64,000 nt of DNA from Eubacteriales bacterium (GCA_045612545.1 JAZKZH010000034.1:1556-65555), one strand, 5' to 3'; shown: positions 3,074 to 41,100, numbered from the stretch's first letter. Notes: generated by a model not told the origin, from the letters alone. Made by a program: numbers and translations.

Positions 3074-3221
3074 ACGCAGACGCGGCCGCGTGCCACCGAC
3101 TTGCCCGCAGGGTTGGTATGCTCAGGATGACGGTTAGAGTGGGTTTTGGCTTATACACAGTTTTCTTTCGCCGACATTCCTAACTTCTCCAAACAACAAC
3201 GTAAAAGCGAGGTTGGATATT

Positions 3222-3518: not shown

Positions 3519-3538
3519 GTTTCCCGAAAGGATATCTT

Positions 3539-5298: not shown

Positions 5299-5841
5299 AT
5301 GGCATTGAAATGTATTGTTTTGGAAAATAACCCCGATAAGGAAGTGCGCCACGCCGCCGTTCTGGAAGCCGTACGGAAGTATTTCGGCTCCGACGAAGTC
5401 ATGGTCAACTACGGTGCGACGGGCAAGCCCTCCATCACCGGCGCAAAGAAGTATATCTCTGTCACCACCACCGGCGATAAGATGATCGTTGCTCTTTCCG
5501 ATTCCCCCGTAGGTCTGGACGGAGAGTATCTCCCCCGTTACAGCGAGGGCAAGACGGATTACGCCATTCTGGCGGACAGATTCTTCTCCGGCGAGGAATC
5601 CGAGTACGTCCATGCAGGCTCTACCGTGGCGGAGGAAAAGGATCGCTTTATGAAGATCTGGACCCGCAAGGAAGCTTACGTAAAATGCACCGGCAAGGGT
5701 GTGGCAGACTTCCCCGCCTTCTCCGTTCTCGAGGGAGATAAATTCCTCTCCAAGGTGGGCAATATTCCTCTGCGGAAGTTCTCCATCTCCTTTGAAGGAT
5801 CTGAAAACTACCTCTTCGCCATTGCGGGAGAGCTGAAGTGA
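5299..5841 (+). CDS. 4'-phosphopantetheinyl transferase superfamily protein (Sfp-type)
   Basis: GLDGEYL (metal-binding D.E) and WTRKEAYVKCTGKG motifs. ATG 5299 follows the ytfJ stop. Confidence 0.7.
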   Translation: MALKCIVLENNPDKEVRHAAVLEAVRKYFGSDEVMVNYGATGKPSITGAKKYISVTTTGDKMIVALSDSPVGLDGEYLPRYSEGKTDYAILADRFFSGEESEYVHAGSTVAEEKDRFMKIWTRKEAYVKCTGKGVADFPAFSVLEGDKFLSKVGNIPLRKFSISFEGSENYLFAIAGELK

Positions 5842-5977
5842 CATAAATGTCAATGCCGTTTTTGATGTCGGCGAGGCAAACCTACGCATAAGCCGGAAGC
5901 CGTCCGCCGACTTGGTCACCTCTGAGCAACCCAGCCCGTTGGGCTGGCTCGCGCGGAATAGAGCCGTTACGGCTTCT
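5842..5977. repeat. module-C copy plus a GTCACCTCTGAGC terminus-like piece and a hairpin
   Basis: 5850-5919 reads ..GCCGTTTTTGATGTCGGCGAGGCAAACCTACGCATAAGCCGGAAGC..GCCGACTTGGTCA, followed by the hairpin CCCAGCCCGTTGGGCTGG. Confidence 0.7.
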
Positions 5978-6292
5978 GTCATCCTGAGCGAACGCGAAGC
6001 GTGAGTCGAAGTTTTGCGGAAGTAGTCGTCGCAACGCGACGAAGGATGGAGCAAAACCAAGGGGTGCTTGCACCCCGAAGGGATCTCCTACGAATTTGAT
6101 CTACCCCTACACGGGTAAAGTTACATTTTTTCGGCAAGAAAAGGTACATCAGACTCTTATTAGATCCTCCCTCATCGCAAAGCGATTCGGGCCTCTCACT
6201 CGGACTCACGTCACTCGTTCGAGTTCGACTCGTCGGGGATTATCTACCGTGTCTCAATCGCAACGTATTACTCCCTCCTCCCTCAGAATGAC
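5978..6292. repeat. nested-palindrome composite element, copy E2 (315 bp, right arm degenerate)
   Basis: GTCATCCTGAG at 5978, core variant at 6080-6167, CTCAGAATGAC at 6282-6292. The left arm is nearly identical to the arms of E4 and E7a. Confidence 0.75.
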
Positions 6293-6669: not shown

Positions 6670-6972
6670 ATGATTACCACCAAACAAAGAGCGTATCTGC
6701 GCTCCATTGCCGCACAGCTTACCCCCATCATGCAGGTTGGCAAGAACGGCGTCACCGAAAACTTAGTAAAAACCCTTTCCGATTCCTTGGAAGCCCACGA
6801 GATCATCAAGCTCACCGTCCTGGAGGCTTGCCCCATGACCGCAAGAGAGGTGTCCGATGCCCTTTGCGTCGCCCTGTCCTGCGAGGCGGTGCAGACCATC
6901 GGCAGAAAGATCTCCCTGTACCGTCAGGCTTCCGAGAAGGAAAAGCGGAAGATCGTATTGCCCAGAGGCTAA
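6670..6972 (+). CDS. yhbY: YhbY/CRS1-type RNA-binding protein (ribosome assembly)
   Basis: TTKQRAYLRSIAAQLTPIMQVGKNGVTENL....HEIIKL is the YhbY (CRM domain) pattern. RBS gaaagga lies upstream. Confidence 0.8.
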   Translation: MITTKQRAYLRSIAAQLTPIMQVGKNGVTENLVKTLSDSLEAHEIIKLTVLEACPMTAREVSDALCVALSCEAVQTIGRKISLYRQASEKEKRKIVLPRG

Positions 6973-7775: not shown

Positions 7776-7804
7776 ATTGAAATATTTGCAAGTATGTGGT
7801 ATAA
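7776..7804 (+). promoter_or_regulatory. sigma-A-type promoter for the four-helix-bundle/GNAT pair
   Basis: TTGAAA (7776-7781), 17-nt spacer, TATAAT (7799-7804). Confidence 0.6.
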
Positions 7805-7829
7805 TGTTGGTGAAAGCGAGGTGCATATC

Positions 7830-8192
7830 ATGTCCGATTCAAAACTCCGCACACAATCCATGGATTTTGCAGTTCAAATCATAAATCTTGTTAAATCACT
7901 TAAAGAAAAACGGGAATCTATTATTTCTAATCAAATCGGCAGAAGCGGCACCTCTATTGGAGCAAACATTCGTGAAGCACAATATGCTCACGGTAAGGCG
8001 GATTTTATTGCCAAACTTCAAATAGCACTCAAGGAAGCAAATGAAACGGGATATTGGTTAGAGTTATTGTATAAAACAAACTACATTACCGAAAGCGAAT
8101 ACAAAGCGCTTGATTCCGCTTGCACGAGTATTAGAGTAATGCTTATATCTTCCATCAACACCGCTAAGGAGAACAGAAATAGCAATGCTTGA
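7830..8192 (+). CDS. four-helix-bundle protein (23S rRNA intervening-sequence protein / Avd-like family)
   Basis: IGRSGTSIGANIREAQYAHGKADFIAKLQIALKEANETGYWLELL is the family signature. RBS gaggtg lies 7 nt before the ATG. The gene is AT-rich. Confidence 0.8.
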   Translation: MSDSKLRTQSMDFAVQIINLVKSLKEKRESIISNQIGRSGTSIGANIREAQYAHGKADFIAKLQIALKEANETGYWLELLYKTNYITESEYKALDSACTSIRVMLISSINTAKENRNSNA

Positions 8193-8613
8193 AGAAGTAA
8201 TTATTCGCTTTGGCACAGAATTAGAAAAAGAAAAACTGTTAACTGATTATCCGAATATTCAGAATGTCATTGGTGATGGTGGATACTTTATAATAGCCGC
8301 AATTAAAGATACAGTTGTTGGTTATCTATGGGCTTTTAGGCGAAAAATTCCTGCACCTGTTGAGCAAAGTGAGATATTTATAAATATAATTGAGGTCATC
8401 CGCACGAATTTGCGGTGTCAGGGCATTGCATCCCAAATGCTGAATGTAATTATAAATACGGCCAAACAAGAAGATGTTTATCAAGTTCGCGCTTACTGCG
8501 ATATAAGGAACGTGCCATCTCATCGGCTTTGGATGAAAAATAAATTTTCGATTAGTCCGGTAAAAATGCCGGACGGTTCCATTGTAGGTTCTTTCGTCAC
8601 ATATATTTTATAA
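8185..8613 (+). CDS. GNAT family N-acetyltransferase
   Basis: The RCQGIASQMLNVIINTAKQ segment matches the acetyl-CoA binding motif A (R/Q-x-x-G-x-A/G). Overlaps the upstream gene by 8 nt. AT-rich. Confidence 0.65.
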   Translation: MLEEVIIRFGTELEKEKLLTDYPNIQNVIGDGGYFIIAAIKDTVVGYLWAFRRKIPAPVEQSEIFINIIEVIRTNLRCQGIASQMLNVIINTAKQEDVYQVRAYCDIRNVPSHRLWMKNKFSISPVKMPDGSIVGSFVTYIL

Positions 8614-11662: not shown

Positions 11663-12094
11663 TTATTTTGCCAAATTGATGATATTTTTCTTCTTTTTGA
11701 CAGCAAACTCCAAAGTTTTATACGCTCCTCCAAAGGAATTTATAACGTATGCAATGATAAGATCCGCCTGCAAAACCATCCATTGATTTCGCTTTGAAAT
11801 AGCGTACCGCGGAGGCACTGTCTCCAAAGGCGGGTAAAGAATCTCATTGTACAGCTTGCTCTCTTCCGATGAAGCATTCAAATACGGAGTAACGAAAACC
11901 AACTCTGCAAAAACGCCTTCTGCCATCAGTTTTCGGCAGGCTCTCATACACAAATGATCAAAATTTCCGTATCCGCCGCAATAAAAGGAAACCTTTTCAT
12001 TTGACGGAAGGCTTGCTTTTACTGTGTCTATCACTTTTTGAAAGATTTCTTCCCCGTAACAAAGTGACCCGTGTCCAACAAAGGTAATAATCAT
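11663..12094 (-). CDS. SLOG/DUF1273 (YpsA-like) Rossmann-fold protein
   Basis: IITFVGHG...YCGGYGNFDHLCMRAC...SKRNQWMVLQADLIIAY resembles the SLOG pattern (GHR..GGA.G.D..A...RN..mv..sd.li). The ATG at 12094 has GGAG 6 nt upstream. AT-rich. Confidence 0.45.
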   Translation of the reverse strand: MIITFVGHGSLCYGEEIFQKVIDTVKASLPSNEKVSFYCGGYGNFDHLCMRACRKLMAEGVFAELVFVTPYLNASSEESKLYNEILYPPLETVPPRYAISKRNQWMVLQADLIIAYVINSFGGAYKTLEFAVKKKKNIINLAK

Positions 12095-12108
12095 ATTCAT
12101 CTCCAAAA

Positions 12109-12560: not shown

Positions 12561-12582
12561 GGGACGCCGTGAACGTCGTCCC
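12561..12582. repeat. solitary REP-like hairpin
   Basis: GGGACGCCGTGAACGTCGTCCC belongs to the same family as the copies at 20681, 20809, 21421, 24288, 24400, 45473, 54951, 55101, 55390 and 55540. Confidence 0.7.
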
Positions 12583-12624
12583 GGAGCGAATCAAACAATT
12601 TTTCCTCGCCGTAACGGCTACATC

Positions 12625-15449: not shown

Positions 15450-15738
15450 GTCATCTCTGAGCATACCAACCCTGCGGGTTGGCGAGTCGAAATTTTCGTA
15501 GTGAGGCATGGCCGAACGGAGAAAATCAAGGGGTGCTTGCACCCCGAAGGGATCTCCTCAAAGTCTGATCTACCCCTACAAAGGCAAACTTACATCCTTT
15601 GTGATAAAACAGTTCTTTAGCCTCGGAAAAGTATATCAGACTCTCAGTAGATCCCGCCTGCGGCGCTTTTTGATGCTCAGCGCTACGCGCTTCGACTACA
15701 AAAAGTTCGACTCACGCTTCGCGTTCGCTCAGGATGAC
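15450..15738. repeat. nested-palindrome composite element, copy E3 (289 bp)
   Basis: GTCATCTCTGAG at 15450, core at 15549-15655, CTCAGGATGAC ending at 15738. Arm stems are ATTTTC/GAAAAT (left) and CTTTTTG/CAAAAAG (right). Confidence 0.8.
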
Positions 15739-15778
15739 ACGCAGACATAGCCGCATACCGCCGACTTGGTCATCCTGA

Positions 15779-16206
15779 GCGGAGCAGGCGTGGAATAATG
15801 TTGTACCTTAGGTTGCAATGAGAAAAGCCTGCGGAGTCGAAGTTTCCGCAGTTCAGGCGCAGCCGAACAGCGGAAACCAAGGGGTGCTTGCACCCCGAAG
15901 GGATCTCCTCAAAGTCTGATCTACCCCTACAAAGGCAAACTTACATCCTTTGTGATAAAACAGTTCTTTAGCCTCGGAAAGGTATATCAGACTCTCAGTA
16001 GATCCCGCCTGCGGCGGTTTTTGCCGCTCAGCGCCGCATTGCACCAACCCAAGAAAAACAGCTTGCCTGTTTTTCATGTCGGCGGTATACCGTTATCTAT
16101 GCACCATACGCAATGCGCCGACTTCGACTGCAAAAACTTCGACGTGCGCGGAGATGACTGTATTGCACAGCCGTAACGACTACGACCCGCGCGTGCTCAG
16201 GATGAC
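15779..16206. repeat. nested-palindrome composite element, copy E3b (428 bp, right arm carries an internal insertion)
   Basis: GTCATCCTGAG at 15779, core at 15900-16006, CTCAGGATGAC at 16196-16206. Arm stems are GTTTCCG/CGGAAAC and GTTTTTGC/GCAAAAAC. Confidence 0.8.
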
Positions 16207-16220
16207 ACGTAGCCGCTACG

Positions 16221-16370
16221 GTTCCAAAAACGACTTGTCGTTTTTGACGTCTGCGAAACAAAACTACGCATAAACCGAAGGATGACCAAGTCGGCACAAT
16301 GCTTTTGGTTTAAGCGTAGTTTTGCTATGCCGACGTCAAAAACAGCTAATGCTGTTTTTGTTGGATTTTG
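16221..16370. repeat. two module-C copies in head-to-head (inverted) arrangement
   Basis: GTTCCAAAAACGACTTGTCGTTTTTGACGTC...ACTACGCATAA...GACCAAGTCGGC...TTAAGCGTAGTTTTGCTATGCCGACGTCAAAAACAGCTAATGCTGTTTTTG. Confidence 0.7.
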
Positions 16371-16460
16371 TTCGATTCCGCGCGGCCAACCCGCAGGTGT
16401 GCTATGCCCTCCCCCCTCTAAAAAAATCCTTTCTCCACCAAAGAAAATTTCCCATTTCCC

Positions 16461-16489: not shown

Positions 16490-16537
16490 ACTATATCTAA
16501 GCATCTAATTACGCCGTAGGTCGGAAGGAGTGTGTGC

Positions 16538-17863
16538 ATGGACCAGTTTGCAGAGCTGAAAAACATCATATTAGAGGAGCTGGGGAAGCAGTATGCCTCC
16601 ACCATCATCACCCTTTGGTTTGATAAAATGGAGATCACCGAGATCACCGATTCGGAGGTCACACTGTCCTTCCCCGCATCCCGCAAGCTGTTTGTGGAGG
16701 CCAATTACAGTGCCGTCCTCACCGAGACCTTTGCCTCTGTTTTGGGCGTTAAGGTGGACGTAAAGTTTATCTCCCCCGAAGAGGTCAAGGAGCAGGAAGC
16801 CCCCCAGCCGGAGCCCGAGAAGCAGAAGAACGCTTATCAGACCCGTTTCAATGCGGACTACACCTTTGAGACCTTCATCGTGGGCAAATCCAACCAGCTT
16901 GCCCATACCGCCGCCATGGCGGTGGCCAAGAACCCCTTCCATCTGAACAACCCGCTATACCTCTACGGCCCCTCCGGCTTGGGCAAGACCCATTTGCTCT
17001 ACGCCATTATGGCCAAGCTCCGTGAGGATCATCCCGAATATTCCATTCTCTACGTCACCGGCGAGGAATTCACCATCGATATGATCGAGTCCCTTGCCCA
17101 GCACAACCCCGCCGCTCTCCGCGAGAAGTACCGCAGTGTGGACGTGCTGTTGGTGGACGATATCCAGTTCATTTCCGGCAAGATCGGTGTGCAGGAGGAG
17201 TTCTTCCACACCTTCGAGACCTTGTTCCGCCAAAACAAGCAGCTGATCATCGCCTCCGACGTAGCGCCGGAACGGATCGACAACTTAGAAGACCGTCTCC
17301 GCGGCAGATTCTCCATGGGCTTGGTGGCAGACATTCAGCCCCCGGATCTGGAGCTTCGCACCGCTATCTTCCGCAGAAAAGCCCTGGATTTCGGCTTTGA
17401 CCTGGATTTCTCCGTGCTGAACTACCTGGCGGAGAACATCACCCGCAACATCCGTCAGATCGAGGGCGCTATCAAAAAGCTCCGCGCCCACTGCTTCCTG
17501 ACCGGTGATAAATGCACCGTGAAGATCGCAGAGCTGGTTCTGGGCGAGTTCTTAAAGACCAAGGCCTCCGCGGATACCATGTTCGAGAAGGTTCTGGAAT
17601 ACGCCTCCAAGAAGTACATGGTCTCCACCGAGGATATTCTGGGTAACAAGCGTACCGCCAACATCGTATCGGCAAGACACTTCGCCGTCTATATGGTGCG
17701 TAAGACCACTACTTACTCCCAGAAGCAGATCGCTGAGCTGTTTAAGCGCAAGGATCACACCACCATCATCAACTCCATCAACGTCATGGAGCAAAAGGTG
17801 GTCTCCGATCCCATCTTCGCCCGCGAAATGGCCCACACCATCGAGGAAATTTTGCAAGGGTAA
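16538..17863 (+). CDS. dnaA: chromosomal replication initiator protein DnaA
   Basis: Walker A (LYGPSGLGKTHL), LLVDDIQF, sensor regions and the C-terminal DNA-binding HTH (...ARHFAVYMVRK.T.YS...IAELF.RKDHTTI). ATG 16538 lies 7 nt after GGAGG; GTG 16532 is an alternative. Confidence 0.95.
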   Translation: MDQFAELKNIILEELGKQYASTIITLWFDKMEITEITDSEVTLSFPASRKLFVEANYSAVLTETFASVLGVKVDVKFISPEEVKEQEAPQPEPEKQKNAYQTRFNADYTFETFIVGKSNQLAHTAAMAVAKNPFHLNNPLYLYGPSGLGKTHLLYAIMAKLREDHPEYSILYVTGEEFTIDMIESLAQHNPAALREKYRSVDVLLVDDIQFISGKIGVQEEFFHTFETLFRQNKQLIIASDVAPERIDNLEDRLRGRFSMGLVADIQPPDLELRTAIFRRKALDFGFDLDFSVLNYLAENITRNIRQIEGAIKKLRAHCFLTGDKCTVKIAELVLGEFLKTKASADTMFEKVLEYASKKYMVSTEDILGNKRTANIVSARHFAVYMVRKTTTYSQKQIAELFKRKDHTTIINSINVMEQKVVSDPIFAREMAHTIEEILQG

Positions 17864-18294: not shown

Positions 18295-19419
18295 ATGGCA
18301 ATTAAATTCTTATCTGACAAAAAGACACTTTTGAACCTGATCCAGCCCGCCCTGGCGGCGACCTCCGGCAAAAGCACCCTCCCCGCGCTGGAGGGCTTGC
18401 TGTTCCGTCTGGAGGACAACGTTCTGACGGTTTGCGGTTATGACCTGGAAAAGGGTGTGCGCACCAGAGGGGTAGTCATTCCCAAGGAAGAGGGCGCGGT
18501 GATCCTGAACGCTCAGAAGGTTTCCGCCATTATCAAGAATTTCCCGGATTGTGACATTTCCTTTGAGGCAGACGATAAGAACATGGTGCATATCACCGGT
18601 GGTATGAGTGACTTCACTGTCCACGGTCTTACCGCGGAGGCGTTCCCCAATATGCCCACCCTGGGCGGCGACAACGCCTTCTGCATCAGCCAGAGCTTGA
18701 TGAAGGAGATCATCGCCTCCACCTGCTTTGCGGTTTCTCAGGTGGACGCCCGTCCCATCCTGACAGGTGAGTTTTTCCATATCGAAAACCGTTCCATCAC
18801 CGCGGTGGCCTTGGATAACTATCGTCTGGCGCTCCGTGAGGAGAAGGAATGCATTTTTGACAACGAAAACGACTTCTCCTTTGTAGTACCCGGAAAATCG
18901 CTCTTAGAGCTTTCCAGACTGCTCAGAGATACCGACGATATGCTCCGCGTGGAGTTTACCGCCAAGTACGTTATCTTCAAGCTGGATGATATCGTGCTGT
19001 TCTCCCGCTTGCTGGAAGGAGAATTTTTGGATTACAAGCGTGCTATTCCCGCTCAGAACAAGATCTTTGTGACCTTGGACAGAAGAGCCTTTGAGGATTC
19101 CGTTTCCCGTGCTTCCCTTTTGGTGGATGAGAAGCTGAAGACCCCCCTGCGCTGCCGCTTTGAGGGGGATATCCTCCACGTTACCTGCTCTACCCAGTAC
19201 GGTAAGGTAAACGATCACCTGCGTATCGAAAAGCTGGGCGACGATCTGGAGATCGGATTTAACAACAGATATTTGTTGGATGCGCTCCGTGCCTGCAAGG
19301 ATGATACCCTGCAGATCTCTCTTTCCACGGCTTTTATGTCCATGGTGATCCAGCCCAAGAATCCCTCCGAGTCCGGCACCTATCTGTATCTGGTGCTGCC
19401 CGTGAAGCTGAAGGATTAA
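18295..19419 (+). CDS. dnaN: DNA polymerase III beta sliding clamp
   Basis: Length, position after dnaA, and pattern (MAIKFLSDKKTLLNLIQPA....STLPALEGLLF; ..NNRYLLDAL) match DnaN. Confidence 0.95.
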   Translation: MAIKFLSDKKTLLNLIQPALAATSGKSTLPALEGLLFRLEDNVLTVCGYDLEKGVRTRGVVIPKEEGAVILNAQKVSAIIKNFPDCDISFEADDKNMVHITGGMSDFTVHGLTAEAFPNMPTLGGDNAFCISQSLMKEIIASTCFAVSQVDARPILTGEFFHIENRSITAVALDNYRLALREEKECIFDNENDFSFVVPGKSLLELSRLLRDTDDMLRVEFTAKYVIFKLDDIVLFSRLLEGEFLDYKRAIPAQNKIFVTLDRRAFEDSVSRASLLVDEKLKTPLRCRFEGDILHVTCSTQYGKVNDHLRIEKLGDDLEIGFNNRYLLDALRACKDDTLQISLSTAFMSMVIQPKNPSESGTYLYLVLPVKLKD

Positions 19420-19564: not shown

Positions 19565-20662
19565 ATGAAGATTGAGAAGCTGTATTTATACAATTTCAAA
19601 AACGCCTCAGAAGAGACATTGACCTTTGCCCCGGGGGTAAACGTGATCTACGGGGAAAACGCTTCGGGGAAGACCAATCTTTTGGAGGCCTTATTTTACT
19701 TTGCTTCCGGGAAGTCCTTCCGCGGCGGCAAGGAACGGGAGCTGATCCGTCTTGGGGAGACCCGCGGTAAGGCGGAGATGGTTTTCTTTGCAGGCGGCTT
19801 GGAAAAGCGGATGTCCCTGGTGTTGGAAAAGGGTAAAAAGCGTGAGCTTTCCGTGGGCGGTATCAAGGTGCAAAGACTTTCCGAGTATTTGGGTCTGTTC
19901 CGCGCGGTGATCTTCACCCCGGATCATTTGGATCTGGTGAAGGGTGTTTCGGAAAACAGAAGAAGATTTTTGGATCTTGCCATTTGTCAATCCTTTCCCA
20001 GATACGCCGCGTCCCTGAACGAATACGGAAGGTTGCTTTTGCAGAAAAATGCCCTTTTGCGGGGAGATAACCCGGACAGAGGGCTTTTGGAGGTTTATCA
20101 CGAACGGATGGCCACCTTGTGCGGGACGATCACGCTGAACAGAGCGAAGTATCTTGCCAATCTGGAGTCTGCGGCAAAGGAATTTCAAAAAGAAATGTCC
20201 TCAGGGCTGGAGGATCTGAAGCTGAAGTACAAAAGCCAGGTTTTGCCCAAGGAAGAAGATACGGCGGAGACCCTGCGGGAACGGTATAAGGTGCTGTTTG
20301 CCCAAAAGGCAGAGGAAGAGATCCGCCGCGGCTTTGCGGTGTGCGGTGTCCAGAGAGATGATTTTGATCTGTATTTGAACGGATTGAATTGCAAGATGTT
20401 TGGTTCCCAAGGGCAACAGCGGTCTTGCGTGCTGTCCTTGAAGCTGGCGGAAGGAGAGCTTTCCAAGCGGTTGACCGGAGAATATCCCGTATTTTTGCTG
20501 GATGATATCCTTTCCGAGTTGGATATGGGCAGACGGGAGTATATTTTGGATAAGATCACCGGCAAGCAGGTGGTTCTCACCGGGTGTGAGACGGAGCTGT
20601 TTGACGGATACCACGGAAGTAATAAGATCTTCGTGGAAAAGGGTGTAGCGAGGAATGTGTGA
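19565..20662 (+). CDS. recF: DNA replication/repair protein RecF
   Basis: The Walker A motif (GENASGKTNLLEA), the signature motif FGSQGQQRS and the Walker B motif (PVFLLDDILSELD) are present. Confidence 0.95.
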   Translation: MKIEKLYLYNFKNASEETLTFAPGVNVIYGENASGKTNLLEALFYFASGKSFRGGKERELIRLGETRGKAEMVFFAGGLEKRMSLVLEKGKKRELSVGGIKVQRLSEYLGLFRAVIFTPDHLDLVKGVSENRRRFLDLAICQSFPRYAASLNEYGRLLLQKNALLRGDNPDRGLLEVYHERMATLCGTITLNRAKYLANLESAAKEFQKEMSSGLEDLKLKYKSQVLPKEEDTAETLRERYKVLFAQKAEEEIRRGFAVCGVQRDDFDLYLNGLNCKMFGSQGQQRSCVLSLKLAEGELSKRLTGEYPVFLLDDILSELDMGRREYILDKITGKQVVLTGCETELFDGYHGSNKIFVEKGVARNV

Positions 20663-20680
20663 GGAGAGTTCAACGCTTTC

Positions 20681-21445
20681 CGGGAGGTCGAGGCGCCCTC
20701 CCCTACAAACCCGAGCCTTGAAAAACAAAAAAATAAACCTTTTCTCCCGCATAGAAAAAAGTTCATTGCGTGAAAACACGGTTAGATTTTCATTTATACA
20801 TCCTGCGGTTTCGTAGGGGACGGCGCCCTCGACGTCCCGCAAAAATAAAAAGGTGGTCATTTTCTTGACTCTTCCAAAAAGAAAACCAATTCGTTTGAAG
20901 GAATTCAGCTACAGCAACGGCGGATCGTATTTTCTTACACTTTGTGTTCAGGACAGACAAAAGATTTTATCGAAGATAGAGCCGCTTTTTGAATGTAAGT
21001 TTGTTAATGAACTGCCGAGAGACGTTTATCCCTTTGATGGTGATGACAGATACCTACGGGTCATCCCTACGGAGATAGGAAAAATTACGGAGAAATATAT
21101 TTTATCCTCAGAAAAAATACAAGGTGTGATCATTGACGATTACGTGATTATGCCGGATCATGTTCATATTGTTGTTTCTATAACGGATGAGTCGGTTTTA
21201 AAACAAGAGGTAAAAAACGAAAAAATTCCAAAGATCGTTTCCGCATTGAAGCGTTTGATTCAAAAAGAGGTTGGCAGACCGATTTTTCAAAGAGCGTATT
21301 ACGACCACGTGATCCGTAATCACGAGGATTATGAAAATATTTTGGCCTATATTCATCAAAATCCGGCAAGATGGTATTTTCGTCGGTTGAATGGAAAAAT
21401 GAAAGTTGATTGAGATCGGGCGGGAGGTCGAGGAGCCCTCCACCT
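20681..21445 (+). mobile_element. RAYT locus: REP doublet + IS200-like Y1 transposase gene + REP
   Basis: REPs at 20681-20709, 20809-20840 (inverted, ends 12 nt before the ORF) and 21421-21445 (starts 8 nt after the stop). The gene body is AT-rich and the REPs are GC-rich. Confidence 0.75.
20853..21413 (+). CDS. REP-associated tyrosine transposase (IS200-like, HUH/Y1 family)
   Basis: KPIRLKEFSYSNGGSYFLTLCV, HUH motif MPDHVHIVV, and the catalytic-Tyr helix FQRAYYDHVIRNHEDYENILAYIHQNPARW. Confidence 0.8.
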   Translation: MVIFLTLPKRKPIRLKEFSYSNGGSYFLTLCVQDRQKILSKIEPLFECKFVNELPRDVYPFDGDDRYLRVIPTEIGKITEKYILSSEKIQGVIIDDYVIMPDHVHIVVSITDESVLKQEVKNEKIPKIVSALKRLIQKEVGRPIFQRAYYDHVIRNHEDYENILAYIHQNPARWYFRRLNGKMKVD

Positions 21446-21510: not shown

Positions 21511-21539
21511 ATGACAAATCAAAATGTTTTTTGTATACT
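21511..21539 (+). promoter_or_regulatory. candidate promoter for the small-ORF-remB-gyrB-gyrA unit
   Basis: ATGACA (21511-21516), 17-nt spacer, TATACT (21534-21539). Confidence 0.5.
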
Positions 21540-21580: not shown

Positions 21581-21850
21581 ATGACGAAGGTGACCCGTGT
21601 GGGAGAATTGGTGATCATTGAATATCTTACCGAGGAGCAGGAGGCTCTTTACAAGAGCGGGCTTACGGAACGGCAATTGGAAAAGCGCAAGCAGCTGGAG
21701 TACAAAAGGCGAGACGTATTCTCGGAGATCCGCAAGCAATACGGCAGAGTTTTGCGGGGGGAATTTGTTCCGGAGGATGATCCTCTGGCATTGGAATTTC
21801 AGAAAAGCCGTAATCAAAATTCTTTGAACGTTGTTTATCTTGGATTATAA
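21581..21850 (+). CDS. hypothetical 89-aa protein
   Basis: A strong RBS (gggaggaaaaaaac) precedes the ATG. The protein is charged and helical-looking. No family recognised. Confidence 0.45.
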   Translation: MTKVTRVGELVIIEYLTEEQEALYKSGLTERQLEKRKQLEYKRRDVFSEIRKQYGRVLRGEFVPEDDPLALEFQKSRNQNSLNVVYLGL

Positions 21851-21865: not shown

Positions 21866-22132
21866 ATGAAAATACCTTTTTTGCATTTGGAAGGCGGGGA
21901 GACCTTGATTGCCGAGGACGTGGTGGGCGTGTTTGATATGGACGTGGCCACCGTAGAGGAGGTAACCCGGGAATTCCTGACAGAAAAACAAAAACGAATG
22001 CAGGTGGTGAGCCTTGCTTCCGATCTGCCCCGCAGCATTGTTTTGGTGCGGGAGCCATACGGAGACAGAGTATATATCAGCGGGCTTTCCACAGAAACCA
22101 TTGCCAAACGTACACACGATCTGTCTGAATAG
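21866..22132 (+). CDS. remB: DUF370 protein (RemB/YaaB-like)
   Basis: Conserved position between recF and gyrB in Firmicutes. IVGVFDMD....SR.F... and RSIVLV....DRVYISGLS.ETIAKR resemble DUF370. Confidence 0.7.
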   Translation: MKIPFLHLEGGETLIAEDVVGVFDMDVATVEEVTREFLTEKQKRMQVVSLASDLPRSIVLVREPYGDRVYISGLSTETIAKRTHDLSE

Positions 22133-22141
22133 AAAGGATAG

Positions 22142-24094
<1,953 letters not shown>

Positions 24095-24287
24095 TAAGAG
24101 CTGCGCTCTCGTCGGAATATCTTAGCAGATATTCCTCCGGTTTTCGTGTCCCTTCCGCGGGACACGGCAAGCTATGTCAAAAGGAACCTCATTCACGCGC
24201 TTGCGCCTTCCCCCATTCCCCAAAGGGGAAGGTTAGCTCGCATTTCATCATTTTTACAGCATAGATCTGAAAAGACAAGCTTCGGTT

Positions 24288-24429
24288 CCGGGACGCCGAG
24301 GGCGTCGTCCCCTACGGTCATGGACGAGTAGGGAAAGCAGCCGTTACCGATGCAAAAACTTGTTGCGTATACCCTTGTTCGCACAAAACAAGGCGCGTAT
24401 TCGTAGGGGACGACGCCCACGGCGTCCCG
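24288..24429. repeat. REP doublet (two inverted REP hairpins about 80 nt apart) in the gyrB-gyrA spacer
   Basis: CCGGGACGCCGAGGGCGTCGTCCCCTACGG (24288-24317) and TTCGTAGGGGACGACGCCCACGGCGTCCCG (24400-24429). Confidence 0.8.
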
Positions 24430-24543
24430 TTTGCGTGGAATCTTGCAACGAATTTTCGCTGTACTCCGTGCGGGAACTTGGGTTCGATTCCAATTGATTA
24501 TTGATTTACAGCATAGATCTCATAAAGACAAGGAGAAATTCCA

Positions 24544-27057
24544 ATGGCTGAAAAAGAATACGATTACAGTGCCTTAGAGGTACAGCATATTAAGGATATC
24601 CGCATTGAGGATGAGATCAAAAATGCGTATATCGACTACGCCATGTCGGTTATCGTTTCCCGTGCGTTGCCGGACGTGCGTGACGGCTTGAAGCCGGTTC
24701 ACCGCCGTGTGCTTTACGCCATGCACGAGGATCATCTGACCTACGATAAGCCTCACCGTAAGTCCGCCACCACCGTTGGTGCCGTGCTGGGTAGCTATCA
24801 CCCCCACGGTGACTCTGCGGTTTATGACACCATGGTACGTATGGCGCAGGATTTCTCTTTGCGTTATCCCTTGGTGGACGGTCACGGTAACTTCGGTAAC
24901 ATCGACGGTGACCCCCCTGCGGCTTACCGTTATACCGAGGCAAGAATGGCCAAGATCGCCGGAGAAATGCTGGCGGATATCGAAAAAGACGTGGTGGATT
25001 TCGACCCCAACTTCGATAACACCAAGAAGGAACCCTCCGTACTTCCCTCCCGTTTCCCCAACCTGCTGGTGAACGGCTCTGTGGGTATTGCGGTAGGTAT
25101 GGCCACCAACGTGCCTCCTCACAATATGAAGGAGGTTTGCGAGGCTTGTAAGTACCTGCTGGACAACCCCGAATGCTCCATTCCCGAGCTTATGCAGTAC
25201 GTAAAGGGCCCCGACTTCCCCACCTATGGTACTATTTACGGCACCGCGGGCATTTATCAGGCCTATATGACCGGTAAAGGTCACATCAAGGTGCGTGCCA
25301 AGGCACACTTTGAGGAGAAAAAGGGCAGAACCTCTATCATCATTACCGAGCTTCCCTATCAGGTAAACCGTTCTCTGCTGTTGGAGAACATGGTAAACTT
25401 GGTAAAGCTGAAAAAGATCGAGGGTATCTCCGACATCCGTAACGAATCCGGCAGAAAGGGTATGCGCATCGTTGTTGAGGTCAAGAAGGATGCCAACCCC
25501 CAGATCGTTTTGAATTTGCTTTACAAATACACCCAGATGGAGGATACCTGCGCGGTGAATATGCTGGCGCTGGTGAAGGGCGAGCCCAAGATCCTCAATC
25601 TGAAGCAGGTGTTGCAGCATTATGTAAACCACAGAGAAGAGGTCATTCTCCGCAGAACCCGCTTTGAGCTGGCAAAGGCAGAGAAGGAAGCCCACATTCT
25701 GGAGGGTTACCTCGTAGCCATTGATAACATTGACGAGGTGGTGCAGATCATCCGTCATTCCGCAAGCATTCCCGATGCCAAGCAGAATCTGATGAACCGC
25801 TTCGGTCTTTCCGAGGCCCAGGCCCAGGCCATCGTGGATATGACCCTGGGTAAGCTCACCGGCTTGGAGAAGCAGAAGATCGAGGACAGATTGGCGGCCT
25901 TGATGGCGCTGATCGAGGACTTGAAGGACATTCTTGCCAACCCTGCCAGAGTGTTCGGCATCATCAAGGAGGATCTGGACGACGTTTCCGCCCGCTTTGG
26001 AGATGCAAGACGCACCGATATCGTGGAGGTGGAGAACGAGATCCTGATCGAGGACTTGATCGAGAAGCAGGATTGCGTGATCACCGTGACCAACGACGGC
26101 TACATCAAGCGTCTGCCCGCCGCAACCTACGCGGCACAGAGACGAGGCGGCAAGGGCATCACCGCCATGGGTACCAAGGAAGAGGACTTCGTGAAGAACG
26201 TGTTCGTCGCCTTCTCCCACGATACGCTTTTGTTGTTCTCCAACAAGGGCAGAATGTATACCAAGCGGTGCTTTGAGATTCCCGAGGCCTCCCGTACCGC
26301 GAAGGGAACCAATCTGGTGAACGTTCTGAACCTTTCCGAGGGCGAGATGATCACCGCAGGGCTTTCCATCAAGGAATTCACCGAGGATGAGTATCTGGTA
26401 TTCGTTACCCGCAAGGGCGTGATGAAGCGTGTCCAGCTTATCGAATACAAATCCCGCAGACAAAGCGGCTTGTTCGCCATCAATCTGGATGAGGACGATC
26501 TGCTGTTGGCTGTGCATAAGACCGGCGGCAAGGATCATATCCTCTGCGCTTCTCACAACGGCGCTACCATCCGTTTTGCGGAAACTGACGCCAGATGTAT
26601 GGGCAGACAGGCCCGCGGCGTAGGCGCTATGGAGCTGCGCGAGGGAGATTATCTGGTAGGTGCTTGTGTCATCCCCGGTGGCGAGGACAACGAGGAATTC
26701 AAGGTGATGACCCTCACCGAGGGCGGCTACGGCAAGCGCAGTGAGATCGCCACCTTCCCCCTGCAGAAGCGCTTTGGTATGGGTGTTCGCGGTCACGCGG
26801 TGAACGAAAAGACCGGGCTTCTCACCGGCATCGCTTTGGTAAAGGAAGAGGATGACTTGATGATGATCACCGATGGCGGTATGATCGTCCGTACCGCGGC
26901 TTCCGGCGTTCCGGTTTACGGCAGACCCACCGCAGGCGTTATCGTTATGCGTTTGGCAGAGGACGCCAAGCTGATCAGCTTTGACGTTGCCGCCAAGGAG
27001 GAGATCCCCGAGGCGGTTGCCGCAGAAAATGCTGAAGAAACTATCGTGGAGGAATAA
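24544..27057 (+). CDS. gyrA: DNA gyrase subunit A
   Basis: [24 protein letters not shown], active-site region [14 protein letters not shown]-type segment [10 protein letters not shown], and C-terminal beta-pinwheel repeats. Confidence 0.97.
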
Positions 27058-27690: not shown

Positions 27691-29656
27691 TTATGAAACC
27701 GTCTCCACGGTAAGCTTGACGGCGTTTTGGGAGGTAATGGGGTATTCTGCGGGGATCTCGATGAAGAACATCCACTGCCGTATATCGCAAGTCCCCTCTT
27801 CTCCCGGCCCGGGAACTCTGCGGTCCAGAATCACTTCCACAGTGCCGTCGGTGTGGATCACAACCTCCTTCAGCTTTAAGCTGTTGGAGCCGCTGGTTTC
27901 CATTCGATACACTGCAATGAGGGCGTTCTTTTCAAAAAAGTCTTCATCGTAAACATCCTCGATCTCAATGGGCAGTTCGTTGCCGTAGACCCCGTAATTG
28001 CCGCTTTTGGCGTACTTGTTAAAGAAGGACTGCTTCGCCCAAGGGGTGGCCAGAACGGTGACGTCCGCAGGGGGATTATCGTAATCCAAAAACACCTCCG
28101 CATTTTGATTCTCCGGGTTCAGAACCACCTTTTCGGTAGGCAAATAGGGGATATACCCGCCTTGGGTGCTCTCCTTGATCACGCTGTAACGGAGCTCTAC
28201 CCGCTTGATCTGCTCCCCGTAGGCTTTATCGATGATGTAGAAGTACAATTTTCCTGCCACAGGACCGTCGTACTGATAGCTGGCGCGGTAGCAAACGTCG
28301 AAATAAGCCGTGCCGTCGGAATATATATCGATTCCGCCGCTTCCCACGATCAAGCCCTGATCGGTGCCTTCGCCGTAGCCCCAGATCAAAGCCTTTTTCT
28401 CAAAGAACTCATCGTCGAACATATCCGCATAATCCGCCGTACGGCGAGCATACTCCTCCATCACGGCGATCAGCGACTGTCGATTGGTAACCACCGAAGC
28501 AAGAGGGCCGTCGCCCTCGTACAAAGGCAGATTCACCATCCCGTATCCTTGGCTAAAGGGTACATGGACAGGCACCTCCACCGAGGGAGGCGGCGGGCAG
28601 TCAACCTTTGTATAGAAGTGGCTGTAGCTTGCGGCAGGGTGATCTGCGGGGATCTCAAACAGGAAGACTTTTCCCCCTGCCGTGGGGTTGTCGGGATTCG
28701 GGTTGGGGCAGCTGAACAGCGCATTGACCTCTTTTTCGTTACTGATCAATCCCTCGAAGGTGACCTCTGCGGAGGCGTCCCACAGGTAGACGTACACGCC
28801 GATGAAGCAAGTTTTTTCAAAATCCACCTTCACAAAGGGATCCCAAACGGTATCCGGCAAATAGCCGTAGGGGCAATAGAGACCCATAAAGGAATTCATT
28901 TTTTTCTGGGAGTTCAGCAGTCTTGCCTCGCTTCCTTCAAAAGCCCCTGCCTCCTGAGAGTAGCAATAAACCGTGTATCCCTTCAGCTCCACGGGCGTTT
29001 CCGCTGTGACGGGAACGTCCCGAGAGATCTCCGCCAAAAGCACCCAGCCTGCCATGTCATCAGTTCCGAAGCCTGTGGAATACTCGTTAAAAGTCCATTC
29101 CAAAACGCCGTTTTTCAGCCAAACCGATTCCGTTCCCAGCCGATGCGACCCGCTTCCCACGGGGGTATAGGCGGCAAGGAGTCTGTGGTTCTCAAAATAC
29201 GCCGCGTCGTAGCGATCCTCCAGCTTAACTTCGCCGCCGTACAGGGCGAAAGAAGCGTACTTTTCAAAAAACGCCTGCTTTTCTTCCACGGTGCTGAGTA
29301 CCACCGCAAATCGGTCGTCTTCGTCATAGCGTACCTGCGCCGCTTGGGTGGGCGCATCGATCCAAAGGTCTGTTTCTTCCGGCTCTTCCGGTTCTTTGGG
29401 TTCTTCGGAGGTCTCACCCGGTTCTTCCGGCTCTGCGGGGGTCTCACCGGGCTCTTCGGAGGGTTCTTCGGAGGTGTCACCGGGCTCTTCGGAGGGTTCT
29501 GTGGGTTCTTCGGAAGAAGCCTCCTCCGAGGGCGCAGAGGAAGAATTCACGGCCTCCTCCTTGGATTTCCCCCTTGGATTCCTCCACGGGAAGGGCGGGC
29601 TGACAGGCGGTGAACAGCACCACAGCACACAAAAGCAAAACGAAGATCTTTTTCAT
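27691..29656 (-). pseudogene. multi-domain secreted lipoprotein gene, apparently frameshifted at a C5/G5 run (or phase-variable)
   Basis: A lipoprotein signal MKKIFVLLLCAVVLFTAC starts at 29656 but is in the -1 frame relative to the 645-codon ORF 27691-29628. The two frames would join if the C5 run at 29569-29573 were C4. Confidence 0.6.
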
Positions 29657-29707: not shown

Positions 29708-30586
29708 CTACTCGGCCTCCTCCACGGTAAGCTTTACGGGATTTTCCGAGGTGATGGGATGCTCCACGGGAATCTCGATGAAGAACATCCACTGCCGAAT
29801 ATCGCAAGTCCCCTCTTCTCCCGGCCCGGGAACTCTGCGGTCCAGAATCACTTCCACAGTGCCGTCGGTGTGGATCACAACCTCCTTCAGCTTTAAGCTG
29901 TTGGAGCCGCTGTTTTCCTCCCGAAACACCGCCAGGAGAGAATTCTTCTCAAAGAACGCCTTGTCGTACCGCTCCTCGATTTCAAGAGGCCGAGGGTTGC
30001 CGTTTTGGTCATAATGGGGGCTTTGGGCGTACTTTGCAAAATAACTTTTCTTTGCCTGCAGAGAAGTCAGCACTGTCACGTCGGCGGGAGGCTCTCCCTT
30101 TTCAAATACCTTCGCATTTTGATTCTCCGGGTTCAGAACCACCTTTTCGGCGGGTACGTAGGGCGCGGGTGCTGCGCAGGGAGGGTCAGGCTCCTCCCCG
30201 GATTCATCTGTTTCCGGCCTTTCCCACTCCTCGGAATAGTCCGGCTCCTCGGAATAGACCGGCTCCTCGGAATAGTCCGGCTCCTCGGAATAGACCGGCT
30301 CTTCGGAATAGTCCGACTCCTCCTGTTCGGGCTGCCCTCCCGGCAGGGACACGGGCGGTTTGGAATCGCCTTGCAGGCTCTCCTCATCCCCCGCGATTTC
30401 CGATGAAGGCGGCAGGGAGGGTGACTCCGCAGGAGATGCCAACTGCCACACCCCGAAGCCCAAGGGCAGACAAATACACAAGAGCAGACACGCCGCCAAG
30501 GCGTGGTGGATATGCCGTTTGCGGGCGTTTCTTTTTGCCTCGCCGCGGCGTTTGATCTCACGGCTGATGGCAATATAATCTTTCAT
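29708..30586 (-). CDS. single-pass membrane protein, probable anti-sigma factor of the adjacent ECF sigma
   Basis: Starts 8 nt after the sigma gene stop. Short basic N-terminus, TM segment ALAACLLLCICLPLGFGVW, (YSEEP[VD])n linker. The C-terminal domain is paralogous to the lipoprotein domains. Confidence 0.45.
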   Translation of the reverse strand: MKDYIAISREIKRRGEAKRNARKRHIHHALAACLLLCICLPLGFGVWQLASPAESPSLPPSSEIAGDEESLQGDSKPPVSLPGGQPEQEESDYSEEPVYSEEPDYSEEPVYSEEPDYSEEWERPETDESGEEPDPPCAAPAPYVPAEKVVLNPENQNAKVFEKGEPPADVTVLTSLQAKKSYFAKYAQSPHYDQNGNPRPLEIEERYDKAFFEKNSLLAVFREENSGSNSLKLKEVVIHTDGTVEVILDRRVPGPGEEGTCDIRQWMFFIEIPVEHPITSENPVKLTVEEAE

Positions 30587-30593
30587 CAACTTG

Positions 30594-31154
30594 TCATTCC
30601 TTTCCCACCGCAAAAGAGGTGTCGTCACATTCCAGAATGGCGCGAAGCTGTTTCTTCCCCCGGTAAAGCAGGTTGTCCACCTGTTTTTTGGAAACCTTCA
30701 TCACACGGGCGATGTCTTCATAGGAAAGATCCTCAAAATACATAAGATACAAGGCCTCCGCCATATCAGAGGGCAGCTTTGCCATGGCGGCGTGGAGGGC
30801 TTTTTTCCGTTCGTTCACCAAAAGCTGTTCCTCCGGGGAGGGTTCTGCGCTTTCCAAGGGAAGCTCCTCGGGAGTCACGTCCGCTATGCGTCTGTGCTTC
30901 TTTAAGTAGTTCAGGGCGCGGGATTTTCCCACCATGAACAAATAGGTCTTTAAGGAAACACGGAAATCGTATCGTTTTTTGTAGGCCACCAGATCGGAAA
31001 ACACGTCCATGGCGATGTCCTCCGCGGCGTGGGGATCCTTCACGTAGCGGTAAAGAAACTGTACCAACGGGTCGTAAAGGGATATTACGATCTCGTCAAA
31101 GGCTTCTTCCTCACCATCCAGGTAGCGGCGGTAGCTACTTGCGCCGTTGTCCAT
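30594..31154 (-). CDS. RNA polymerase sigma-70 family (ECF-type) sigma factor
   Basis: Region 2 (FDEIVISLYDPLVQFLYRYVKDPHAAEDIAMDVF) and region 4 (ALYLMYFEDLSYEDIARVMKVSKKQVDNLLYRGKKQL). ATG 31154 is preceded by aggaagg. Confidence 0.8.
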   Translation of the reverse strand: MDNGASSYRRYLDGEEEAFDEIVISLYDPLVQFLYRYVKDPHAAEDIAMDVFSDLVAYKKRYDFRVSLKTYLFMVGKSRALNYLKKHRRIADVTPEELPLESAEPSPEEQLLVNERKKALHAAMAKLPSDMAEALYLMYFEDLSYEDIARVMKVSKKQVDNLLYRGKKQLRAILECDDTSFAVGKE

Positions 31155-31358: not shown

Positions 31359-31701
31359 GTCATTCTGAGGGAGCCCGAAGGGCGAGTCGAAGTTTTGCGG
31401 AGAAAACAAGGTGCATACAGCGGCATAAAAGCAGTTTGCTTTTTGATCTGCATCGGCCGCGATGCACCGTTCGGAGCAAAACCGCCGCAGGCGGGATCTA
31501 CTGAGAGTCTGATGTTCCTTACCAAAGGAAAAGAACTGTTTTATCACAAAGGATGTAAGTTTGCCTTTGTAGGGGTAGATCAAATTCGTAGGAGATCCCT
31601 TCGGGGTGCAAGCACCCCTTGGTTTTGCTCCATCCTTCGTCGCGTTGCTACGACTACTTCCGCAAAACTTCGACTCACGCTTCGCGTTCGCTCAGGATGA
31701 C
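31359..31701. repeat. nested-palindrome composite element, copy E4 (343 bp, core inverted)
   Basis: GTCATTCTGAG at 31359, GAGTCGAAGTTTTGCGGAG, GGAGCAAAACC, core at 31493-31599, GGTTTTGCTCC, TCCGCAAAACTTCGAC, CTCAGGATGAC ending at 31701. Confidence 0.85.
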
Positions 31702-31761
31702 AGAAGCCGTGGCAGTTCGATTCCGCGCTTGCCAACCCGCAGGGTTGGTATGCTCAGAGAT

Positions 31762-31910
31762 GACCAAGTCGGCGTATGGCTGTATACCGTTCATCACTGC
31801 ATACCGCCGACGTCAAAAACGACAAGTCGTTTTTGGAACTGCGGTGCGAAGACCAAGTCGGCGTATGGCTGCATACCACGCTTGACTGTGTACCGCCGAC
31901 GTCCCAAAAA
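31762..31910. repeat. two module-C copies (second truncated)
   Basis: GACCAAGTCGGCGTATGGCTG.ATACC...CCGCCGACGTCAAAAACGACAAGTCGTTTTTGG, then GACCAAGTCGGCGTATGGCTGCATACC...CCGCCGACGTCCC. Confidence 0.7.
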
Positions 31911-35888: not shown

Positions 35889-36187
35889 GTCATCCTGAGC
35901 AAGCCGCGAATGCGGCGCGTCGAAGTTTTGCGGAGAAAGCAAGGTGCTTTAGCACCGTTCGGAGCAAAACCGAAGCCTGCGATAGCGGGCTGAGGGATCT
36001 CCTACGAGTTTGATCTACCCCTACATGGATAAACTTACATCCTTTTTTGATGGAACAGTTCTTTACCCCCCCCAAAAAGGAACATCAGACTCTCAGTAGA
36101 TCCCGCCTGCGGCGCTTTTTGATGCTCAGCGCTACGCGCTTCGACTACAAAAAGTTCGACTCACGCTTCGCGTTCGCTCAGGATGAC
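35889..36187. repeat. nested-palindrome composite element, copy E5 (299 bp)
   Basis: GTCATCCTGAG at 35889, core at 35994-36104, right arm CTTTTTG/CAAAAAG identical to the right arm of E3, CTCAGGATGAC ending at 36187. Confidence 0.8.
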
Positions 36188-36227
36188 ACACAGACATGGC
36201 CGCATACCGCCGACAAGAACTGCTGTG

Positions 36228-36345
36228 CAAGGAAGTGGCTTCGCCAATGAAGTTGCGACCAAAGGTCGCAAATGTTCAGTTGTTTCGGGAACGAAACGGC
36301 CTTGCGCTTTGATCCAAAGGTTCCAAAAACGGCTATGGCCGTTTT
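36228..36345. repeat. module D copy
   Basis: GGAAGTGGCTTCGCCAATGAAGTTGCGACCAAAGGTCGCAAATGTT..GTTGTTTCGGGAACGAAACGGCCTTGCGCTTTGATCCAAAGGTTCCAAAAACGGC..GCCGTTTTTGG matches 2474-2590. A partial copy lies at 35832-35870. Confidence 0.75.
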
Positions 36346-36444
36346 TGGAACTGCTGGCAGTGAACAAGTCGCCTCGTCAGTACGTCTCCCTCATTTTTCA
36401 ACGAAAAAACAAAAACATACATACATTTCGAAAGGAAAAACACT

Positions 36445-40921: not shown

Positions 40922-41100
40922 CCATCTCTGAGCATACATTTCAAAACGCAAGGCTTGGAAGGATGTAAGTTTACCCGTGAAGGGGTAGATCGGACTCATA
41001 GGAGACCCCTCAACCTGCAAGCAGGTCTCGGTTTCCTTCGCTCAGCTTCGCTTCGACTACGGAAACTTCGACTCGCGCGAGCGCGCTCGCTCAGGGTGAC
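40922..41100. repeat. truncated composite element, copy E6
   Basis: CATCTCTGAGC at 40922, half core (GGATGTAAGTTTACCCGTGAAGGGGTAGATCGGACTCATAGGAGACCCC), right arm GTTTCC/GGAAAC, CTCAGGGTGAC ending at 41100. Confidence 0.65.

Follow-up and report, generated by a model that had tools for sequence, protein, structure and literature searches.

What occupies the 918-nt gap behind recF in the dnaA-dnaN-recF-gyrB-gyrA region of a gut-type, uncultured Clostridia bacterium? The gap lies in a stretch of 64,000 nucleotides from Eubacteriales bacterium (GCA_045612545.1, JAZKZH010000034.1:1556-65555), here called the window, which covers 64 kb of the host genome and to which the counts of palindromes and transposase genes at this locus refer. 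Positions 20681-21445 had been read, in an original prediction, as the gene of a transposase associated with repetitive extragenic palindromes (REPs), i.e., a REP-associated tyrosine transposase (RAYT), with inverted REPs around it. The follow-up analysis points the same way: the enzyme is very probably a class-2 Y1 HUH endonuclease/transposase (RAYT, also TnpA-REP), closest to the described subclass 2.4, which together with its cognate GTAG-footed REPs would form a REPtron. That the system is complete is a reading from homology and from the anatomy of the locus. The element is of a known kind; what is new is its host group, a taxonomic extension.

The protein itself carries much of this assignment. 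The profile search proposed with the original prediction places it above the cut-off of the Pfam Y1_Tnp family (29.9 bits, cut-off 23), and the NCBIfam model REP_Tyr_transpos (NF047646) matches it with an E-value of 1.7e-19 and 70.2 bits. Among solved structures, the top match in a single-sequence search was the E. coli TnpA-REP (4ER8), and a profile built from 58 family sequences matched the same structure at E 1.2e-14 (57.6 bits), compared with 5e-6 (29.6 bits) for the TnpA of ISDra2. In line with these results, a Foldseek search with an AlphaFold2 model of the protein (pLDDT 88.6, pTM 0.83) ranked 4er8_A first and all transposases of the insertion sequence (IS) group IS200/IS605 below it. 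The open reading frame (ORF) encodes PDHVHIVV, in which the HUH motif corresponds to H99/H101, followed by FQRAYYDHVIRN and by YIHQNP, which contains the catalytic tyrosine Y162. This last motif has the class-2 form Y---NP, as opposed to the Y---Q signature of IS200 (PMC6006769, Table 1). Six residues (H99, H101, Q142, R151, Y162 and N166) are invariant among the 58 homologs.

The best structural and profile match, the E. coli K-12 enzyme (TnpA-REP or RayT, encoded by yafM; subclass 2.2, Group 2), shares with the window protein the HUH motif and the Y---NP form, and its GTAG-contact segment WQPRFWEHAIRN aligns with the window FQRAYYDHVIRN, with Q95, H101 and R104 kept. Its REPs likewise have a GTAG foot, a mismatch in the stem and an arrangement as inverted pairs around the gene. 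However, the two proteins are only ~18% identical, E100 is replaced by D and W94/W99 by F/Y in the window protein, which also lacks the C-terminal domain of the subclass 2.2 enzyme and, in the model, has an extra beta-hairpin between beta1 and alphaA (residues ~36-68).

The motifs named in the original prediction are thus present, but the start codon it had given to the gene, GTG 20853, is probably not the one in use. Translation likely begins at TTG 20865, because AAGGTGG precedes this codon at a spacing of 8 nt, because both the TTG and the ribosome-binding site are kept in an ortholog with 84% amino acid identity (contig L001), in which the GTG is absent, and because the database gene call for the window RAYT is 182 aa as well. 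Comparison with this ortholog gives dN 0.074, dS 0.66 and dN/dS 0.11, so that the gene is, judging from the two sequences, intact and maintained by purifying selection. A promoter scan gave no clear candidate for the RAYT gene; it could be transcribed by read-through from recF.

The hairpins around the gene belong to one repeat family. The REP unit is 26 nt long and consists of GTAG followed by GGGNNG-N-CG-loop-CG-N-CNNCCC, which folds into 6 bp, a conserved purine-purine mismatch, 2 bp and a loop of 3-4 nt, with a free energy of -8.5 to -10.3 kcal/mol. The pattern GTAGGGGNNGNCGNCCNCGNCNNCCC has seven zero-mismatch matches in the window, compared with a mean of 0.02 for this degenerate pattern in 100 dinucleotide-preserving shuffles, and an independent stem-pairing detector likewise returned seven REPs where 0.01 were expected. 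Seven strict and four degenerate or variant copies were found in all, every one of them intergenic. Their stems vary in a compensatory manner (GGGACG/CGTCCC, GGGCCG/CGGCCC, GGGAGG/CCTCCC), and the GTAG foot, which the original prediction had described on the 5' side of the hairpin, is present on 8/8 full copies.

These eight full copies make up four inverted doublets, in each of which the GTAG feet face inward (20681/20813, 24289/24403, 54951/55104 and 55390/55543), and alignment of the doublets reveals blocks of spacer sequence common to the four. The two doublets that were folded (20676-20845 and 54945-55135) each give one long hairpin; for the 20681/20813 doublet as a whole, the fold reaches -37.4 kcal/mol (z -5.4). 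By the definition of Bertels and Rainey, the inverted doublets are REPINs. The third REP proposed at 20681 is real and pairs with the copy at 20813, and among the other hairpins proposed earlier, those at 24288/24400, 54951/55101 and 55390/55540 proved to be full inverted doublets, whereas those at 12561 and 45473 are partial and have no GTAG foot. A search of Rfam with the REP and the REPIN found no family.

The cassette therefore comprises a REPIN (20681-20839), the RAYT gene (20865-21413) and a decayed REP (21421-21445). As in a REPtron, GTAG-footed inverted REPs flank the gene, with a GTAG-hairpin at 20813 and a hairpin with a decayed foot at 21421, and the flanks of the L001 ortholog are consistent with this layout. 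The inverted flanks of the original prediction hold, but its distances do not: the 20813 REP ends 14 nt, not 12, before GTG 20853 (26 nt before TTG 20865), and the downstream copy starts 7 nt after the stop codon and has a degenerate foot, CCACCTGAC instead of CCCCTAC, and folds poorly (z -0.17). In L001, the downstream REP is intact (CGGGAGGTCGAGGCGCCCTCCCCTAC), the sequence of the 20681 REP is found directly downstream of the gene, and the upstream end (...GTCCCG) lies at the contig edge.

A further tie between enzyme and palindrome comes from other genomes. Many Clostridia homologs carry their cognate REPs in frame within the RAYT ORF, at two fixed loops, in inverted orientation and bracketing the segment that encodes the HUH motif. 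At the first site, which follows the first strand (...CILSxI), the peptide VGDGALDVP, present for example in L127, is encoded by GTAGGGGACGGCGCCCTCGACGTCCC, which is also the sequence of the window REP at 20813; at the second, after the HUH strand (the beta3/alphaC loop), the peptide GTSRAPSPT corresponds to the inverted copy. The resulting geometry, GTAG-hairpin before the HUH segment and hairpin-CTAC after it, is the same as that of the REPs flanking the window gene. Other lineages have VGADALGGP/GGPPRASAPT or VGGGALDAP/GTSGAPSPT at these loops, and some proteins (P0044, P0054, P0038) contain several tandem REP-coded inserts. In-frame REPs were confirmed at the DNA level on six contigs (Table 1), and in assembly CABPZP01 a dispersed REP on one contig (L025) has exactly the sequence of the REP inside the RAYT gene of another (L037). 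An in-frame REP after the HUH strand (beta3/alphaC) has been called unique to subclass 2.4 (Quentin et al., 2018; PMC6006769); for the first site, before the HUH motif, no description was found in the literature.

The clade of the window protein (P0001-P0009) has no in-gene REPs. Its second site is a short loop of low confidence in the model, and its first site reads EPLFECKFVNELPRDVYPFDGDDRYLRV, where the DNA holds two CCTACGG foot-like relics (21052-21080) that may represent a decayed insert. It is conceivable, if quite unlikely, that the in-gene pair, which is found across a broad lineage of RAYTs from gut Oscillospirales, is functional, serving either as a master copy that seeds the dispersed REPs or as a self-targeting switch, with the enzyme cutting or excising the part of its own gene that encodes the HUH motif. 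If so, the AT-rich clade of the window would be a lineage whose REPs have moved out to the gene flanks.

How the cassette came to lie behind recF can be judged from related genomes. In one relative (L138; RecF 81% identical), recF is followed by a 153-nt spacer, a 91-aa ORF, a 75-aa ORF, gyrB, a GIY-YIG ORF and gyrA, and in another (L139; RecF 66% identical) by a 94-aa ORF, gyrB and gyrA. The cassette is absent from this spot in both, and within 17 kb around recF neither of them has a strict REP. Since both relatives lack it, the 0.8-kb REPIN-RAYT-REP unit at 20681-21445 has been inserted behind recF and ahead of a conserved 89-aa ORF, with the boundaries originally proposed for it in the recF-orf89-remB-gyrB string. 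The 91-aa ORF of L138 is 63% identical to the 89-aa ORF of the window, and homology with the L138 spacer resumes at ~21460; the aligned part holds a promoter-like ATGACA-17-TATACT (21511-21539) preceding orf89-remB-gyrB, so that the insertion lies upstream of this site and leaves it intact.

The composition of the gene sets it apart from its surroundings, in agreement with the contrast noted originally between an AT-rich gene and GC-rich REPs. Its GC content is 37%, and that at third codon positions (GC3) is also 37%, compared with a GC3 of 63-78% in dnaA, dnaN, recF, gyrB and gyrA; the L001 ortholog is equally AT-rich. Because of this composition and of the absence from relatives, a fairly recent arrival of the gene at the recF site, or in the lineage, is suggested, with the REPs either carried along or picked up. 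The gene does not look anciently resident and vertically inherited at this position.

Several observations made at the same place concern the neighbours of the cassette. The 89-aa ORF has no Pfam hit and appears to belong, as an unnamed conserved ORF, to the recF-gyrB string of this group; its identification with DUF6809, a domain seen near two of the RAYT homologs, was rejected, as there was no hidden Markov model hit and only a forced alignment. The RemA/RemB-like ORF scores 19.7 bits against the Pfam RemA-like family, under the cut-off. In a closer relative (L137; RecF 90% identical), other GC-rich palindromes, CCGGGTCCGGGGGTGGGCCCCCGG and AAGGGGCGGCGCCCCTT, lie just after recF (6748-6896), where the contig ends. 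Palindromic elements seem to have a hot spot in the 3' flank of recF. The gyrB-gyrA spacer is variable too, with a GIY-YIG ORF in L138 (11831-12121), a REPIN in the window (spacer 24095-24543) and 30 nt in L139.

Among described systems, the family comes closest to subclass 2.4 of the TnpA-Y1 enzymes, which was equated with Group 4 of Bertels et al. (2017) and is distributed over Cyanobacteria, Bacteroidetes and scattered phyla (Quentin et al., 2018; PMC6006769). This subclass has canonical long REPs, in which the bottom of the stem consists of three G-C pairs (PMC6006769), and comparison of its REP GTAGGGGCAGATTCCATATCTGCCC with the window GTAGGGGACGACGCCCACGGCGTCCC shows in both a 5' GTAG directly at the stem and the three basal G-C pairs; the window unit GTAG/GGGACG...CGTCCC is thus of the canonical long type listed in Table S1 of PMC6006769. 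The window also shares the REPtron arrangement, and the family agrees with subclass 2.4 in four respects: REP type, loop position (in the homologs), absence of a C-terminal extension after the Y helix, and the Y motif YIxxNP. The differences lie in the host, Oscillospirales (Clostridia) instead of Cyanobacteria or Bacteroidetes, and in the placement of the REPs, which flank the window gene instead of lying in frame, the subclass 2.4 trait; in the homologs, a further in-frame site precedes the HUH motif. A second comparison is offered by the REPIN-RAYT system of Pseudomonas fluorescens SBW25 (Bertels and Rainey, 2011; PMC3116915), in which REPs also occur mainly as inverted doublets that form one long hairpin, the RAYT gene has a REPIN next to it and hairpin variants differ between host lineages. 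Unlike in SBW25, the spacer here is long (~85-125 nt) with conserved inner blocks, and the gene looks like a recent insertion and not like an ancient resident.

The framing of the original prediction, in which described REP/RAYT systems are mostly proteobacterial, has to be corrected: the closest described type, subclass 2.4, is not proteobacterial (PMC6006769), and Group 1 RAYTs are "also found in the Clostridia" (Bertels et al., 2017; PMC5581495). The novelty is therefore smaller than had been implied. Abundant REP/REPIN populations have been tied to Groups 2 and 3 only (Bertels et al., 2017; PMC5581495), a catalogue of GTAG and intragenic REPs has no Firmicutes or Clostridia entry (Di Nocera et al., 2013), and the supplementary tables of PMC6006769 list neither an entry from Clostridia nor any of the stems of the present REPs. 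In the literature searched, no dedicated study of RAYT/REP systems in Clostridia, Oscillospiraceae, Ruminococcaceae or Faecalibacterium was found, and no REP/REPIN population in Clostridia is named, the statements being confined to the occurrence of some RAYT groups there.

Some of the evidence weighs against the assignment to a complete subclass 2.4 REPtron. The NCBIfam score of 70.2 bits falls below the curated equivalog cut-off of 80. The REP downstream of the gene has lost its foot, and the window gene has no in-frame REPs, with ESVLKQEVKNEK at the beta3/alphaC loop. The pairing of an AT-rich gene with GC-rich REPs is not accounted for by this assignment. Finally, the window motifs DHVH / FQ / YIHQNP depart from the published NH[IFV]H / WQ / YIxNNP of subclass 2.4 in the HUH and W motifs; the homologs mostly have NHIH, WQ or FQ, and YIxxNP.

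Parts of this evidence could also be accommodated if the gene were a passenger or a decaying relic, with the REPs kept or spread by another RAYT, or retained for host roles (termination, mRNA stability, gyrase binding), and adjacent to the gene because REPs cluster. The degenerate downstream copy, the contrast in base composition, the loss by the window clade of the in-frame REPs that homologs carry, and the presence of several RAYT paralogs in some genomes (L026) would all fit. Nevertheless, a dN/dS of 0.11 at a dS of 0.66 indicates that the protein is maintained, every catalytic and GTAG-contact position is intact, and the ortholog in L001 keeps the same REP arrangement, which together make this account unlikely.

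An ordinary IS200/IS605 insertion, in which a TnpA moves itself and the hairpins are the IS ends, is far less probable still. Such elements share the HUH/Y1 fold with the window protein and presumably the single-strand cleavage chemistry, and membership in the Y1_Tnp superfamily, insertion relative to related genomes and a composition foreign to the neighbourhood are all as an IS would have them. However, the NCBIfam IS200 model gives the window protein 18.3 bits against a cut-off of 55, its tyrosine motif is of the other class, and its C-terminal helix is of the monomer type, unlike that of IS608 or ISDra2 TnpA. Furthermore, the flanking hairpins are inverted and not co-oriented, and at least four other loci have these hairpins but no copy of the gene. 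The two features named at the outset as telling for an IS, a tnpB partner or further copies of the gene, were looked for within the window and neither was found; the neighbours are recF and the conserved 89-aa ORF, and the gene is single in the window, unlike the multicopy genes of class 1.1. The original reading of a RAYT rather than an IS200/IS605 transposase is supported by profile, Y motif and fold.

Scarcely credible, lastly, is the proposal that the hairpins have nothing to do with the transposase and are intrinsic terminators or regulatory palindromes of an ordinary kind, since, even though they are intergenic and several lie just after convergent or co-directional gene ends, the copies at 20681, 20813 and 21421 were not called terminator-like and have no T run after them, the doublets are inverted with a common spacer, and the pattern recurs in at least 120 contig stretches, nearly all of them from Oscillospirales, and this proposal is largely refuted by the conservation of a GTAG foot that lies outside the stem and by the identical 26-mer in frame in RAYT genes of other genomes.

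For the REPtron, a mode of action can be sketched by analogy with the E. coli TnpA-REP (4ER8), following the mechanism reportedly worked out by Ton-Hoang in 2012. A monomeric enzyme would bind the folded REP hairpin in single-stranded DNA, e.g., at a replication fork, with the conserved FQ..YDH..R segment reading the 5' GTAG foot. Y162, together with the metal bound by the HUH motif, would then cleave and rejoin the DNA, so that REP or REPIN units could be moved or copied in trans while the RAYT gene itself stays at low copy number.

The distribution of gene and palindrome extends well beyond this locus. The window RAYT has 92 database relatives, the few named ones being almost all from metagenome-assembled genomes (MAGs) of Clostridia, Clostridiales or Oscillospiraceae, and these names agree with the Clostridia host assumed originally. 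A scan of a species-representative genome collection, which gives distribution and not counts, detected the REP pattern in at least 120 contig stretches, with Oscillospirales as the source of nearly all of them (Acutalibacteraceae, Oscillospiraceae, Ruminococcaceae). The matches listed include Gemmiger formicilis ATCC 27749 and Ruminococcus flavefaciens ATCC 19208, and among them are 203 strict REPs, with lineage-specific stems (GGGACG 51, GGGGCG 31, GGGCCG 30, GGGTCG 22, GGGCGG 20); REPs are uniform inside an assembly and different between assemblies. Taken together, the window locus and these REP-bearing stretches show that gut and rumen Clostridia commonly carry a GTAG-REP/RAYT system of the subclass 2.4 type. 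A search of metagenomes for close orthologs yielded only a 54% relative, on a contig of 1.2 kb, plus distant ones, and a look-up of the exact window protein found no public contig. More distant RAYT homologs lie after an ACT-domain gene (L122), near HTH/YlmH (L126) or GFO_IDH/DUF6809 (L127), or between parE/gyrB-like and parC/gyrA-like genes (L029), and no conserved neighbourhood emerged among these four. Additionally, one Acutalibacteraceae MAG (L026) has three divergent RAYT paralogs within 8 kb (760-1334, 3264-3743 and 5394-5714), one of them fragmented, from which it follows that the copy number of RAYT genes in the group is not always one.

Work on REPIN-RAYT systems has so far been almost confined to Gammaproteobacteria, and the cultured G. 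formicilis and R. flavefaciens strains are tractable organisms outside that group. The locus opens the questions of whether RAYTs mobilise REPs outside Proteobacteria, why a transposase gene tolerates internal REPs, and how REPs break metagenome assemblies of Oscillospirales taxa. For annotation, the gain is an explanation of a 0.8-kb foreign insert in the dnaA-gyrA region. The features of the locus are collected in Table 1.

Table 1. Coordinates of the cassette, of the other REP elements and genes of the window, and of loci at which in-frame REPs were confirmed in homologous RAYT genes
Feature	Sequence	Position	Strand	Remarks
REP copy, left REPIN arm	window	20681-20706	-	reads GTAGGGGAGGGCGCCTCGACCTCCC on the minus strand; hairpin-CTAC on the plus strand
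REPIN spacer	window	20707-20812		blocks TTTTCTCCCGCA and CGTG.AAACACGGT..GATTTT also in other doublets
REP copy, right REPIN arm	window	20813-20838 (20839 with final G)	+	GTAGGGGACGGCGCCCTCGACGTCCC(G)
RAYT / TnpA-REP gene	window	20865-21413	+	182 aa, TTG start (likely); alternative GTG 20853
Degenerate REP, right cassette end	window	21421-21445	+	CGGGAGGTCGAGGAGCCCTCC, then ACCTGAC in place of the CTAC foot
REPIN, short spacer	window	24289-24429		gyrB-gyrA intergenic
REPIN	window	54951-55129		intergenic; fold -47.6 kcal/mol, z -5.1
REPIN	window	55390-55568		copy of the 54951 REPIN inside a ~440-nt tandem duplication
Partial REP hairpin	window	12561-12583	+	GGGACGCCGTGAACGTCGTCCC, without GTAG/CTAC foot, intergenic
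Partial or chimeric REP hairpin	window	45473-45492	+	CGGGACGCCTCGACCTCCCG, without foot, intergenic
dnaA	window	16532-17863		
dnaN	window	18295-19419		
recF	window	19565-20662		followed by the 918-nt gap
89-aa ORF	window	21581-21850		
RemA/RemB-like ORF	window	21866-22132		
gyrB	window	22151-24094		
gyrA	window	24544-27057		
In-frame REPs	L029	1620-2170		
In-frame REPs	L005	4144-4653	-	
In-frame REPs	L127	5769-6281		
In-frame REPs	L126	10001-10522		
In-frame REPs	L037			
In-frame REPs	L093			

Other repeats are also present in the window. In the tandem duplication that contains two of the REPINs (54940-55740), each unit of ~440 nt consists of a REPIN followed by 3-5 copies of a 16-nt near-palindrome, GTGAAACGTTTTCACA / GTGAAACATTTTCACA; the intergenic region around these 16-nt arrays measures 1.1 kb, and the arrays resemble series of operator sites. 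Mosaic repeats of a second intergenic family, which is more abundant (~130-450 nt, ~10 copies, both orientations), occur at 2469-3100, 5840-6170, 15500-16410, 27613, 31470-31790, 35960-36350, 40960-41020, 51350-52260 and 62120-62170, with two tandem copies immediately upstream of dnaA. This second family contains GTAGGGG, but an Rfam search gave no match and a search for a REP-like consensus fold no convincing structure; its core reads ...GGATGTAAGTTTGCCTTTGTAGGGGTAGATCAGACTTTGAGGAGATCCCTTCGGGGTGCAAGCACCCC..., and it has a terminal hairpin with compensatory changes.

Additionally, ORFs with a GC content of 37-40%, in a window of 53% GC, are found at 7794-8613, 11663-12106 and 52421-52858 and may be foreign genes. 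Short-period coding repeats, with mixed spacings of 12-30 nt at 29399-29515 and 18-nt units at 30204-30340, fall within long minus-strand ORFs (27691-29628 and 29708-30628), which look like genes of repetitive proteins, probably of a surface or linker type.

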